Assembly: GCA_021296415.1 (NCBI GenBank)
Contig: JAGWAL010000012.1
Location: forward strand, 1 to 55,093
Length of the DNA: 55,093 bases
Source: Acidimicrobiia bacterium
Lineage (GTDB): Bacteria > Actinomycetota > Acidimicrobiia > Acidimicrobiales > CATQHL01
Direction of reading: 5' to 3'
Position numbers and translations under genes: made by a program. Shown here one piece after another: positions 45,766-53,618 of the stretch (positions are counted from its first letter, which is position 1; every line of letters starts with the position of its first letter). The notes under the pieces are model-generated. The model saw only the letters and a program-made list of their open reading frames with translations. It did not search any database and was not told the origin of the DNA.

Positions 45766-47664
45766 CTAGCCCGTCGGGACTTCCATCGGGGGAGCCTCCT
45801 CCAGCAGGTCGGTGCGGTACAGGTAGCGGATGTCCCAGAGGCCGTAGAGGGTGGGCGTGGTGTTGCCGAAGACGTTGCGAACGGCGCTCAGACGCTCGCC
45901 CTGCGTCGTGTAGATGAGCGGCACGTTCTCGGCGACGATCTCCTGAGCGCGGTGATACAGGGCCACGCGTTCGGCCCGATCCAACTCCCGGCCCGCTGCC
46001 ACGTAGAGGTCGTTGATCTCGGCCTCCCAGGCCGTCGCCGGCGACGGCTGGTTGGGGTACCAGAGATGCAGTTGCTCGCTGCTGTGCCACACGTTGATGC
46101 CCTGGTGCGGGTCGGTGCCACCGGTCAGACCGATCACCACGGCCTCCCAGTCGTAGGAAACGGTGAGTCGCCCGACCAGATCGCCGAACTCGACCGGCAC
46201 GTAGTTGACGGCGAGGCCGATGTCCTCCATACCGCGGTGGATGATCTCGGTGACCCGCTGGCGGACATCGTTGCCCGTATTGGTCGCCAGCGAGAACCGG
46301 ATCGGGTTGCCGGCGGCGTCCTCGCGGACGCCGTCTCCGTCGCGATCGGTCCAGCCGAGCTCGTCGAGGATCTCGCCGGCACGAGCCGGGTCGTACCCGT
46401 AGCGCCGCACGTCGGGATTGTGGAAGTCGCCGGCGGCGGGGCTGATGGAGGACCACTGGGCGTAGCCCAGACCGTGCTGCACCTCATCGATGATGCTGTC
46501 CTTGTCGATGCTGTGAGCCACGGCCTGGCGGAAGCGCACGTCGCGGAACCAGGCGAGCTGCTCCGGGGCCACGTGGGGGTTGCCGGTCTCGGGATCGTAT
46601 CCCGGGTTCATGTTGAAGACCAGGAAGTTCGTCCCGAAGGCAGGACCACGCCGGTGGATCGTGAAGTTCTGCTCGTCCTGCAGAGGTTCGAGCCGAATGA
46701 ACTCCTCGCCCAGCACGCCGTGCGTGTCCGACTCGCCGGCGAGGAAGGCGGCGAGTGTGGCATCGAGGTTCTCGACGATGACGCGCACGATCTCGTCCAG
46801 GTACGGCAGGCGGTTGCCGGCGTCGTCGGTGAGCCAGTAGGTCGGGTTGCGGCGCATCACGAGCCGCTCGCCGGGTTCGTAGGCGGCGATGGTGAAGGGT
46901 CCGGTGCCGATGACCTCCGCCGGGTCCGTGTGGATGTCCCAGACCGAGGCGAACGTCCCGTCAGCGACGTGCCTCTCGAGGACGTGCTTCGGGTAGATGG
47001 CCGTGCCCAGCGAGCGCAGGAAGGACGCAGAGGGCACCGGCAGGACCATCCGCACCGTGTGATCGTCCAGCGCCGTGACCTCCATGTGGTCCTTCTGCCA
47101 CTGGCCCTCCTCGTCGAGGAACCGGAACTCGAAAGTCGGGCGCGCCGAGGCCGCGATCTCGTGGTTGTAGATGATCCGATTGAAGGTGAAGTCCACGTCG
47201 TGGGCGGTGAACGGCTCCCCGTCGTGCCAGGTGACGTCCCTGCGGAGATGGAATGTCCAGGTGAGGTCGTCCTCGGAGCGCTCCCAGGATTCCGCAAGCG
47301 CGGGCTCGACCTCGTCGTTCAACCAGGAGGTCTCGGTGAGCCCTTCGAAGAGATAGCCCAGCACGTTCGAGGAGCCGGCGTCGTTCGAGACGGCAAGGTT
47401 GAAGGTGAGCGGCTCGGAGATGGTGGCGATCGTGAGGCGGCCGCCGTGACTACCGACGGCGTAGCCGAACTCTGCCGCGTTGCGCCCGAGCGCGGCCACG
47501 ACCGACTCCGACTCGCCGCGCGGATCAGTGGTCTCCGAAGTCGCCGGGTCCTCGGTCCCCGTTGCGGCGGGCGCCGCGGCGGCCAGGAGCATGAGCGATG
47601 TGAGCAACAGTGTCAGCAGCGACCGGAGCCGCAGGCGGCGAAGGGCCAAGCCTCGTAACGTCAT
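45766..47664 (-). CDS. ABC transporter substrate-binding protein, family 5 (peptide/nickel)
   Basis: Signal peptide; PALAESW, WTFHLR..V.WHDGEPFTAHDV.FT, GTGPF motifs. Confidence 0.9.
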   Translation of the reverse strand: MTLRGLALRRLRLRSLLTLLLTSLMLLAAAAPAATGTEDPATSETTDPRGESESVVAALGRNAAEFGYAVGSHGGRLTIATISEPLTFNLAVSNDAGSSNVLGYLFEGLTETSWLNDEVEPALAESWERSEDDLTWTFHLRRDVTWHDGEPFTAHDVDFTFNRIIYNHEIAASARPTFEFRFLDEEGQWQKDHMEVTALDDHTVRMVLPVPSASFLRSLGTAIYPKHVLERHVADGTFASVWDIHTDPAEVIGTGPFTIAAYEPGERLVMRRNPTYWLTDDAGNRLPYLDEIVRVIVENLDATLAAFLAGESDTHGVLGEEFIRLEPLQDEQNFTIHRRGPAFGTNFLVFNMNPGYDPETGNPHVAPEQLAWFRDVRFRQAVAHSIDKDSIIDEVQHGLGYAQWSSISPAAGDFHNPDVRRYGYDPARAGEILDELGWTDRDGDGVREDAAGNPIRFSLATNTGNDVRQRVTEIIHRGMEDIGLAVNYVPVEFGDLVGRLTVSYDWEAVVIGLTGGTDPHQGINVWHSSEQLHLWYPNQPSPATAWEAEINDLYVAAGRELDRAERVALYHRAQEIVAENVPLIYTTQGERLSAVRNVFGNTTPTLYGLWDIRYLYRTDLLEEAPPMEVPTG

Positions 47665-47819
47665 CTCTCTCCCATCTTGGCGTTGTTCCGGAGTGCGAGG
47701 TCGAGCGGAGAGGTTAGCGGCGCACGAACGTCGGATCTCCTGTACCGGCGGTGAGGTAGCTGTGGCTGCGGCCCGCCCTAGGATTGCGCCTCTAGCAGGT
47801 GCACCAGCGAGGAACCCCG

Positions 47820-48284
47820 ATGAGACTCCAACCCGGCGACCCGGCACCGGATTTCAGGCTGATGAACCAGGACGGCGAAGAGGTCTCGCTGGCGGACTTC
47901 GCCGGGCGGAGAGTGGCACTGTTCTTCTACCCGAAGGCTCTGACCCCCGGTTGAACGAAGCAGGCCTGCGGCATGCGTGACATCGCCGACGAACTGCCGG
48001 AGGAGGTCTCCATCCTGGGAATGAGCGCGGATCCACCCAACCGCCAGAAGCGCTTCGACGAGAAGCACGACCTGGGTTTCGGGTTGCTCTCGGATCCCGA
48101 CAACTCCGTAACCGGCGCCTTCGGGGCGCGCAGCGAGAAGAAGATGTACGGCAACACCTTCATTGGCACCACCCGGTCGGCCTTCCTGATCGACGTCGAG
48201 GGCCGCATCGAGCAGGCCTGGTACGGGATCAGCCCGAAGGACACGCCGTTTGAGATCCTGGCCGCCCTCGAGGAGAGCGAGTGA
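47820..48284 (+). CDS. bcp: BCP/PrxQ peroxiredoxin, probable selenoprotein (U45 at TGA 47952-47954)
   Basis: MRLQPGDPAPDFRL...FFYPKALTPG-TGA-TKQAC, in frame with ORF 47973-48284 (LLSDPD, RSAFLID); 154 aa in total. Confidence 0.88.
47969..47988 (+). promoter_or_regulatory. candidate bacterial SECIS hairpin
   Basis: CGGCATG-CGTGA-CAT(C)GCCG; 21 nt separate the UGA from the loop, which has G in its second position. Confidence 0.55.
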
Positions 48285-48715
48285 GCGGAGCGTCGCTGCC
48301 GGCACCCGCCTCGGTTCTCCCGCACAGGCCCCCATTCCTGCTGCTGGACGAGGTCACCCTGCTGGTGCCCGGCGAACGGGCCGAGGGCTCCTGGCGTACG
48401 ACCGGTTCGGAGACGTTCTTCGCCGGCCACTTCCCGGGCCGGCCCACGTTGCCGGGCGTCCTGATGACCGAGGCCCTTGCCCAGCTGGGCGCCTACGCGG
48501 TCCTCAGCGACGAGCGCCTGACCGGCAGGTTGCCACTGTTCGGGGGCATCGACGGCGCCCGTTTCCGTCGCCAGGTGCTGCCCGGTGAGCGCCTCGACCT
48601 GCGTGTGGAGGTGCTCCGCCTGTCGGCCCGCGCCGGGCGGGCCGCGGGGGAGGCGACGGTGGACGGGGCGGTGGCCTGCACCTGCGAGTTGATGTTCGTG
48701 GCGGTGCCCGCCTGA
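48281..48715 (+). CDS. fabZ: 3-hydroxyacyl-ACP dehydratase
   Basis: LPHRPPFLLLD, FAGHFPGRPTLPGVLMTEALAQ, FRRQVLPG. Confidence 0.92.
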   Translation: MSGASLPAPASVLPHRPPFLLLDEVTLLVPGERAEGSWRTTGSETFFAGHFPGRPTLPGVLMTEALAQLGAYAVLSDERLTGRLPLFGGIDGARFRRQVLPGERLDLRVEVLRLSARAGRAAGEATVDGAVACTCELMFVAVPA

Positions 48716-48734
48716 GGGCTGGGGTCGCGGCGCC

Positions 48735-49916
48735 TCAGGCGGCTGGTGGCGGGCTGATGACGAGGCAGCCGTTGTGGCCGCCGAACCCGAACGAGTTGGA
48801 AAGGCTGGGACCCGGCTCCCAGTCGCAGGGGTCCGGCGCCACGATCCGGATGGGGGCCATGTCCGGGTCAGGATTGACGTAACCGGCGGTCGGCGGTAGC
48901 ACGCCGTGGTGCATCGACATGATGATGGCGACCGCCTCGACGGCGCCGGCAGCCCCGAGGGCGTGACCGGTCACTCCCTTGGTCGAGGTCACGAGGGGAC
49001 CGGGCGTGCCGAAGACCTTCGCGATGGCCTCGGCCTCGTTGGCGTCATTCAGCGCTGTGGAGGTGCCATGGGCGTTGATGTGGAGCACCTCGGAGGGCGT
49101 GATCCCGGCGTCGGCGAGTGCCAGTTCCATGCAGGCCACCGCGCCCGCACCGCCGGGCGCCGGAGCGGTGATGTGGTAGGCGTCGGCGGTGCTGGCGTAG
49201 CCGGTGATCTCGGCGAGGATCCCGGCGCCACGGCCCTGGGCGTGTTCGAGTTCCTCGAGCACCACCACCCCGCACCCCTCGGCCTGCATGAAGCCGTCGC
49301 GATCCCGGTCGAACGGGCGGGAGATGCCCACTCGCGACAGCGCCGTCATGTTGGCGAAGCCCTGGAGGCCGGTCGGGGAACTCGAGCATTCCGAGCCGCC
49401 GGCCAGCATCACGTCGCAGCGGCCGTGGCGGATCAGTTCGGCGGCGTTGCCGATGGACTGGGTGGCGGAAGCGCAGGCAGTGGACGTCACCTCGCAGGGC
49501 CCCTGGTAGCCGTAGCGCATGGAGACTGCCGCAGCGGCGGCATTCGCCATCATCATCGGGATCAGGAACGGTGTGACGCGCTTGGCGCCCAGCGCGAAAT
49601 GCCGTAGCACGTAGGTCTCGATGCTCATCAGGCCGCCCACGCCGGTGCCGATCCAGACGCCGACGCGCTCCGGGTCCGCTCGCAGGTCGCCGGCCTGCTC
49701 CAGCGCCTCGGCGGCACCCGCCAGGGCGAACTGGGTGAACCGGTCGTGGCGTCGCATCTCCTTGGCGTTGGCGAAGTGCGGGGCCGGATCGAACCCCACC
49801 ACCGAGCGCAACCCCTCGGGTGGTTCGCTCAGCAGTCCGGCGAAGAAGTCCTCCCGGCCGATCCCGCAGGCCGCCAGGACGCCGAGGCCGGTGACGACCA
49901 CCCGGCGCCGGCTCAT
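48735..49916 (-). CDS. fabF: beta-ketoacyl-ACP synthase II
   Basis: [37 protein letters not shown]. Confidence 0.94.
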
Positions 49917-53306: not shown

Positions 53307-53390
53307 GCCCGGGTGGCGGAATTGGAAGACGCGGAGGACTCAAAATCCTTTGACCCTGCGGTCGTGTGGGTTCGAGTCCCACCCCGGGCA
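53307..53390 (+). tRNA. tRNA-Leu(CAA)
   Basis: Acceptor GCCCGGG/CCCGGGC+A, anticodon arm GAGGA-CTCAAAA-TCCTT, long variable arm, GTTCGAG T-loop; CCA not encoded. Confidence 0.95.
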
Positions 53391-53618
53391 CGAGTGCGAG
53401 GGCACTGCATGCTGTTTAGCTGGGCTTTTCTAGTTGATAGGAACTTCGTTTGCGACCACTAGGTCTTGTGTTTAGGACCGGTGGCGGGTGCTTTGGTTTG
53501 CGGCGGGTTCTAGTAGTTGGGGGCGTCCGACCGATACCCGTAGCAGGGCGAATCTGGCGCGCCGATTTCCGGACGTGGCGTTCGGAAGACTGGACGCTGC
53601 TCTCGCCGATCTGACGCT

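Follow-up and report, generated by a model that had tools for sequence, protein, structure and literature searches.

An open frame for a peroxiredoxin that is crossed by a TGA at the very position of its catalytic cysteine can be a broken gene, a shorter gene or a selenoprotein gene, and we asked which of these is found at 47820-48284 (+) of the window (the whole stretch of 55,093 nucleotides analysed here, contig JAGWAL010000012.1 of an Acidimicrobiia bacterium). From the letters alone, a first-pass annotation had read the locus as a selenoprotein BCP, and this reading is supported by the selenocysteine (Sec) genes of the genome, the conservation of the TGA, the fit of a downstream hairpin to the published bacterial SECIS model and the truncated state of public protein calls. 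As a comparative argument from sequence, these data lead us to a probability of roughly 0.9 that 47820-48284 is one intact BCP/PrxQ thiol peroxidase with Sec (U45) in place of the peroxidatic Cys, encoded by UGA and decoded through SelB and the hairpin.

Gene layout and protein family

ATG 47820 opens a frame of 154 codons that ends at 48284, with an internal TGA as codon 45 (47952-47954, +) in the context YPKALTPG-U-TKQAC and a second TGA (48282-48284) as the final stop; start, internal codon and end had all been described in the first pass and were reproduced by translation. Because TGA is also the gene's real stop, the codon is not reassigned, and the complete coding sequence, translated with TGA as U, would specify a Sec-containing BCP/PrxQ peroxiredoxin of 154 residues. 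A Shine-Dalgarno-like GAGGA (47809-47813, +), as read from the sequence, lies 6 nt 5′ of the ATG and may serve its translation. Genetic code table 11 splits the frame into two ORFs, 47799-47954 and 47973-48284.

The encoded protein was placed by profile and structure comparisons. With Cys substituted for U, the Pfam AhpC-TSA match reaches 113.5 bits (8e-33), and the NCBIfam equivalog model NF006960 (thioredoxin-dependent thiol peroxidase, BCP) is matched over residues 2-150 at 152.5 bits against a cut-off of 140; scores fall below the cut-offs of NF040737 (peroxi_PrxU; 32.2 bits against 270) and NF053650 (a Deinococcus PrxQ model; 119 against 260). The closest solved structures are all BCP/PrxQ (5enu, 2a4v, 3drn, 5iph and 3gkk; E 4e-25 to 9e-21), and the structure alignments place U45 on the peroxidatic Cys and R119 on the conserved Arg, so that the BCP/PrxQ active-site motif is present as P38, T42, U45 (for Cys) and R119, the first three in the arrangement P38-x-x-x-T42-x-x-U45. 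Arg119 (CGG, 48174-48176, +) lies in TTRSAFLID, aligned with GIERSTFLID of chain 5enu_A, and this conserved active-site Arg has a role in peroxiredoxin catalysis. The presumed resolving cysteine, Cys50 (TGC, 47967-47969, +), follows U45 by five residues, at the position of the resolving Cys in E. coli-type BCP, an atypical 2-Cys enzyme with C45 and C50; the first-pass assignment to BCP with a Cys five residues past U45 agrees both with this spacing, which is that of atypical 2-Cys enzymes, and with the NF006960 score. The gene is thus, as judged from its sequence, a BCP/PrxQ-subfamily thioredoxin-dependent peroxidase of predicted activity. It shares with E. coli-type BCP its length, the P-x-x-x-T-x-x-[C/U]-x-x-x-x-C spacing and the conserved Arg, and differs in carrying Sec where the E. 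coli type has the peroxidatic Cys. The three other AhpC-TSA genes of the same genome have no internal stop.

The neighbourhood is compact. Directly downstream, a FabA-like dehydratase ORF with a GTG start (48281-48715, +; Pfam FabA 1.5e-24) shares four bases with the peroxiredoxin gene, GTGA at 48281-48284 holding both the TGA stop of the one and the GTG start of the other; the overlap suggests translational coupling of the two genes, which are presumably co-transcribed. A beta-ketoacyl synthase gene follows in convergent orientation (48735-49916, -). On the other side, the listed ORF of a divergent solute-binding protein gene (45766-47847, -; Pfam SBP_bac_5) overruns the peroxiredoxin start; its true start probably lies further in, so that a short intergenic region at about 47665-47819 would separate the two divergent genes. 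A promoter and terminator scan of 47500-48900 found none. One sponge metatranscriptome contig spans 47779-48500 with 82 differences; since it comes from a relative and DNA carry-over is possible, we did not count it as expression.

The TGA across related genomes

The source genome is an Acidimicrobiia metagenome-assembled genome (MAG) of 1.69 Mb in 63 contigs, 77.5% complete, and in such an assembly a dead BCP, left by a nonsense mutation or an assembly error, is one alternative to consider, as a single TGC-to-TGA change would suffice. In three other studies (runs X2, X5 and X7), however, 47600-48500 is covered in one piece by contigs with 3-8 differences each, and among the differences listed (the best-supported ones, with 48 others beyond them) none falls at 47952-47954 in these independent contigs, which speaks to the assembly doubt raised in the first pass. 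Runs containing the stretch bear either the label sponge metagenome or a coded host label. Two of them (X5 and X7) also contain short contigs of another organism that match only 47922-47988 (67 nt) at about 85% and diverge on both sides; these may represent a further Sec-BCP of a more distant relative from the same habitat.

Relatives of the source organism carry the same codon. We searched 21 genomes of the family, comprising the genome of the window, 17 of the same genus (88-94% identity) and 3 of a second genus (60-62%), and the best match contained exactly one TGA in all 21, a result that a search across all available genomes of the family gave again; across the 21 extracted genes the TGA column is identical. 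In a scan of named species genomes (best 80 of 594 relatives), the site held Cys in 77 of the 80 loci and TGA in the other three, which belong to two ‘Acidimicrobiia bacterium’ MAGs and one ‘Candidatus Poriferisocius sp.’ MAG, are 59-62% identical to the window's protein and come from genomes that all contain selA. Together, the same TGA column is seen in 24 of 24 related genomes with Sec forms (21 of the family plus these three), a recurrence that makes the in-frame TGA more than a chance event. Opposite it, the aligned orthologues from other families whose loci were recovered have TGC or TGT (9 of 9), so that conservation in relatives, a check proposed in the first pass, turned out in favour of a coding TGA. 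Selenoprotein genes typically have an in-frame UGA where their homologues conserve a redox Cys, and this is the pattern found here. One assembly departs from the others at the end of the gene: in L034 (G005, a MAG 74% complete) the peroxiredoxin gene lacks its stop and continues through 290 low-complexity residues, out of frame over the next gene, either through an assembly error or through a real change.

Selection was compared on the two sides of the codon with the Nei-Gojobori method, over the 153 pairs formed by 18 genes from the genus; dS is close to 0.5 on either side. Before the TGA (codons 1-44) the dN/dS ratio is 0.112, and after it (codons 46-150) 0.081, that is, purifying selection is equally strong after the TGA, and from low ratios on both sides it follows that both parts are translated in frame and kept by selection. 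With the same TGA shared by 24 genomes in three groups that are 59-62% identical in protein, a frame that stays open after it and a ratio of 0.081 beyond it, a pseudogene is excluded, and we regard a dead BCP as next to inconceivable.

In a second alternative, translation would simply end at the UGA and the functional product would be the 103-residue ORF from Met52 (47973-48284), perhaps together with a separate 44-residue peptide. This is the form in which public collections hold the gene: in a collection of 5.8 billion proteins (120 matches listed), all nine matches of at least 86% identity are 103 residues long, cover 65-66% of the query and are calls from Met52, some of them from NCBI records, and the ATG is conserved at codon 52. 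Among the matches listed, full-length proteins, named peroxiredoxin Q/BCP, begin at 63% identity. A 103-residue call is, however, what any table-11 gene caller would output for this frame, and the nine closest public proteins thereby bear out the earlier statement that standard gene callers truncate the gene. Furthermore, the product from Met52 would lack the catalytic residue and, according to the structure alignments, the first strands of the fold, and codons 1-44, which would be left to a separate peptide, bear the whole P-x-x-x-T-x-x motif and are themselves under purifying selection (0.112). Met52 appears to be merely a conserved residue, with Leu in its place in 8 of 9 Cys forms, and inspection of the sequence 5′ of its ATG (47973) found no ribosome-binding motif comparable to the Shine-Dalgarno-like GAGGA. 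We therefore consider termination at the UGA highly improbable and retain the full-length selenoprotein as the reading of the locus.

Beyond the family, one genome was searched from each of 20 other families of the order, and the best match had no stop in 17, a TAG in one and a TGA in two; the two TGA matches, together with a lesser match in a third genome, belong to a different peroxiredoxin that is 34-40% identical and has its TGA at the peroxidatic position. In 300 other genomes of the class that were sampled, 204 gave a match at E ≤1e-30, and the 149 matches listed, with 56 more beyond them, comprise 146 without a stop (among them one from each of the unpublished genomes G249, G290 and G310, which were part of the sample and on which alone no claim is based), two with TAA or TAG and one with TGA, the last being a terminal stop in a gene whose active site has Cys. 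The distinct peroxiredoxin at 34-40% identity (L137 in G031, L138 in G024 and L139 in G021) has no Cys five residues after its TGA, and its occurrence in other families implies that Sec-peroxiredoxins are not rare in the order. Two more genes, L140 (G036) and L141 (G030), are peroxiredoxin- or thioredoxin-like with a TGA in a U-x-x-C motif. To judge by such genes, the order looks rich in thiol-oxidoreductase selenoproteins.

Selenocysteine machinery and a candidate SECIS hairpin

A Sec-BCP implies selABCD in the genome, as the first pass had stated, and all four genes were found there with scores above curated cut-offs. selA (369 bits) and selB (271 bits) are adjacent on contig 45, which also carries the gene for tRNA-Sec, selC (Rfam 55.8 bits, over threshold; called tRNA-SeC with anticodon tca by ARAGORN). 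selD (354 bits; contig 53:40969-41907 of G000) has an in-frame TGA of its own in GAG-U-AGK (L001:1531-1533) and is itself a selenoprotein candidate. Two hairpins are possible in the 60 nt that follow the UGA of selD, neither with a clear resemblance to that of the BCP gene; a GC-rich hairpin with a GUU loop can form 33 nt after this UGA. With the sel genes present and the TGA in 24 of 24 related genomes, the case that had been named as fatal to the selenoprotein, an organism devoid of Sec machinery and a TGA unique to its assembly, is excluded. selA was also found in all 21 family genomes and in genomes of 11 of the 20 other families of the order, from which it follows that the Sec machinery is older and wider than Sec-BCP.

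Two further searches concerned the Sec complement of the genome. A molybdopterin oxidoreductase gene (PF00384, 229 bits; contig 39:74714-75988, -, L133) contains one in-frame TGA and probably encodes a formate-dehydrogenase-type selenoenzyme, and a search for SelW/Rdx in the 77.5%-complete genome found none. A second tRNA-Sec in the window, suggested by a sub-threshold match at 53307-53391 (+; 36.8 bits), was rejected, the gene being called tRNA-Leu (anticodon CAA) by ARAGORN.

Directly after the UGA, the RNA can form a hairpin at 47969-47988 (+), with arms 47969-47975 and 47981-47988, the loop CGUGA at 47976-47980, seven pairs and one bulge (C47984); the placement is that of the first pass, which had noted a stem-loop at SECIS distance, and the UGA-to-loop spacing is 21 nt. 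RNAalifold recovered exactly this hairpin (columns 18-24 with 30-37) from the 60 nt following the UGA in the 21 family members and predicted it again as the proximal hairpin in 150 nt of all 24 Sec forms. In the alignment the pairing holds in 97.9% of cells and drops to 19-69% on sliding the partners by 1-3 columns. Two pairs show compensatory changes: the closing pair C18-G37 is replaced by U-A in two genomes and by U-G in another, and the second genus has G-U for C21-G34, its helix there becoming continuous; being few and confined to related genomes, such changes may stand for no more than two or three events. All 24 of 24 Sec forms have the same loop, CGUGA. A second, distant hairpin was considered in the same 150 nt and set aside, because all that RNAalifold returned for it was a weak long-range structure (columns 96-140) in which many pairs are broken, and the proximal hairpin is sufficient here.

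Within the hairpin, synonymous sites are frozen. Arg53, in the loop, is CGT in all 21 family genes and fixed by the loop in the other three Sec forms, against CGT in one of nine Cys forms. Throughout the genus (18 of 18 genes), codons 44, 51, 53, 54 and 56 are free of synonymous change, and the third base of codon 55, which is the bulged C, varies. Upon restricting the comparison to amino-acid-invariant codons of families with at least four codons, synonymous change is absent from 4 of the 6 that lie within codons 44-56, as against 3 of the 52 elsewhere (Fisher P-value 0.0011, for sequences that are kin and not independent). Part of the pairing is nevertheless dictated by the conserved peptide GMRDIA, because Cys-form orthologues already make 3-6 of the 7 pairs, with L048 reaching -6.2 kcal/mol.

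The bacterial SECIS consensus, as given in PMC13188914 (Fig. 2 legend), calls for a loop of 3-9 nt, a stem of 4-16 bp, 16-37 nt from UGA to loop, a minimum free energy of at most -7.5 and a G among the first two loop bases, which in most cases precedes a G or U. The hairpin falls within these values, with a loop of 5 nt, G-U at loop positions 2-3, a 7-pair stem and a spacing of 21 nt. The minimum free energy of nucleotides 4-50 ranges from -8.5 to -16.8 kcal/mol and is ≤-7.5 in 24 of 24 sequences, the hairpin being within the minimum-energy fold of that segment in 18 of them; the core hairpin alone has -7.3 kcal/mol, and -5.3 to -6.0 in three genomes. A single-sequence fold of the 60 nt after the UGA was no better than shuffles (z -0.23), so that the support for the hairpin is one of comparison, not energy. 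Like the E. coli fdhF SECIS and the bSECISearch consensus, this predicted element is an intra-coding hairpin with a small apical loop, G-U at positions 2-3 and 21-nt spacing; it differs in its short stem of modest stability and in that its first and last loop bases (C and A) cannot make the optional N1-N2 pair. Rfam recognised no SECIS family in 47800-48300, where four chance matches were obtained at E up to 10; this is expected for a bacterial SECIS.

The first pass had also pointed to a palindrome, GCAGGCCTGC (47960-47969), as a competitor for the base of the stem. It is present in the window, but only as the codons for Gln, Ala and Cys, and the second genus does not preserve the palindrome. 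We infer that the hairpin 47969-47988, a conserved candidate SECIS in keeping with the published model, is what SelB binds. In the mechanism that we propose, UGA 47952-47954 would be decoded by Sec-tRNA(Sec) delivered by SelB, which would bind the small mRNA hairpin 21 nt downstream, and the second UGA (48282-48284), followed by no such hairpin, would lead to termination.

Read-through of the UGA could in principle insert another residue, either Cys carried on tRNA-Sec when selenium is scarce or Trp or Cys through near-cognate suppression. In other systems, Cys is known to be inserted at Sec codons when selenium is limiting, and the site tolerates Cys in all other lineages. The genome, however, has a full Sec pathway whose selD uses a UGA of its own, selA accompanies the gene throughout the family, and plain suppression would not need a conserved hairpin at SECIS distance. 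We accordingly give such decoding a small chance, and insertion of selenium at the UGA of this peroxiredoxin is the outcome that the comparative data point to.

Predicted Sec chemistry, relation to known enzymes and a proposed Cys-to-Sec switch

If U45 is Sec, its selenolate would attack the peroxide to give a selenenic acid, Cys50 would resolve this acid into an intramolecular selenenylsulfide, and thioredoxin would reduce the U45-C50 bond. With Sec instead of Cys at the peroxidatic site, the intermediate would thus presumably be a selenenylsulfide and not a disulfide; both the U45/C50 chemistry and the reductant are predicted from the subfamily assignment.

Peroxiredoxins with Sec are well known as a class, in line with a remark of the first-pass annotation, and TxxU peroxiredoxins are standard entries in prokaryotic selenoproteome lists. 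COG1225, to which the Sargasso Sea members are assigned, we take to be the Bcp group. There, Sec-peroxiredoxins (PF00578, COG1225; TxxU or PxxxTxxU) form the second most abundant family with 43 sequences (PMC1088965, Table 1), the corresponding table for GOS has 253 (PMC2398784, Table 2), and 12 genes are tabulated in a 2006 survey of genomes (PMC1794560). The sole experimentally characterised one among those listed in the available part of PMC13188914 is PrxU of Eubacterium acidaminophilum (Sohling et al. 2001), with Sec as its peroxidatic residue. The window's protein shares with the TxxU family its Pfam family, Sec at the peroxidatic residue, a hairpin right after the UGA and the widespread occurrence of Cys homologues. 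With PrxU it shares Sec at the peroxidatic site; it differs from PrxU in belonging to a separate peroxiredoxin subfamily, as the low NF040737 score indicates. The Sec-BCP is previously unannotated, but its kind has been known since 2001 and is abundant in marine metagenomes, and general knowledge of selenoproteins is unchanged by it. A literature search on Sec-BCP in this sponge-associated Acidimicrobiia clade found no paper on the enzyme and no listing of the clade, although these very sequences may be among those in the supplementary lists of the selenoproteome papers. For another order of the Acidimicrobiia, the available part of a preprint on Actinomarina reports Sec machinery together with a selD in Sec form, with no mention of a peroxiredoxin.

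What the locus adds is mainly practical. Across the sponge-associated clade, an antioxidant enzyme is public only as 103-residue fragments that lack the active site, and metabolic reconstructions of these symbionts built on such fragments would miss both a selenium-dependent peroxidase and the need for selenium. The hairpin, with its short stem, invariant loop and canonical distance, is a clean comparative example of a bacterial SECIS and could help train selenoprotein predictors for high-GC Actinomycetota. The lineage detail, one Cys-to-Sec switch in the sponge-associated clade with variation of the resolving cysteine, is a modest addition.

To place this switch, we built a quick maximum-likelihood tree of 50 proteins (30 orthologue genes and 20 of the 80 named-species loci, chosen for taxonomic spread). 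The 24 Sec forms fall on one side of a branch with SH-aLRT 92 (not starred), beside Cys forms of the same order, and with this grouping a single change of state is enough. Read most simply, Cys was converted to Sec once, in a lineage where selenocysteine was in use beforehand, the direction of the change being suggested by the outgroups. Cys50 is kept in 20 of the 24 Sec forms. In the second genus one genome (L038) has Arg in its place, and the three Poriferisocius-like forms (L049, L050 and L053) have Ile; in these three, a Cys occupies the position of His83, about 38 residues after the peroxidatic site.

We tentatively raise a broader scenario, which we hold to be rather less probable than its alternatives: a single switch in the housekeeping BCP would have taken place in the ancestor of a sponge-associated clade that unites the family with the Poriferisocius-like forms, after which the resolving Cys became dispensable or movable. 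If so, a selenenic acid at the U45 site would be recyclable by different partners, the clade would offer a natural series for the effects of Sec on peroxiredoxin chemistry, and the switch could possibly be an adaptation to oxidants inside the sponge host. A comparable arrangement exists among Cys enzymes. In Xanthomonas campestris BCP (PDB 3gkk and the 5iiz series), the resolving Cys lies about 36 residues after the peroxidatic one; the enzyme is homologous to the window's protein over residues 11-151 (E about 1e-20), and differs from it in that the window's protein keeps Cys50 and has His83. The three Poriferisocius-like Sec forms, with no Cys50 and a Cys some 38 residues on, appear from their sequences to resemble this X. 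campestris arrangement.
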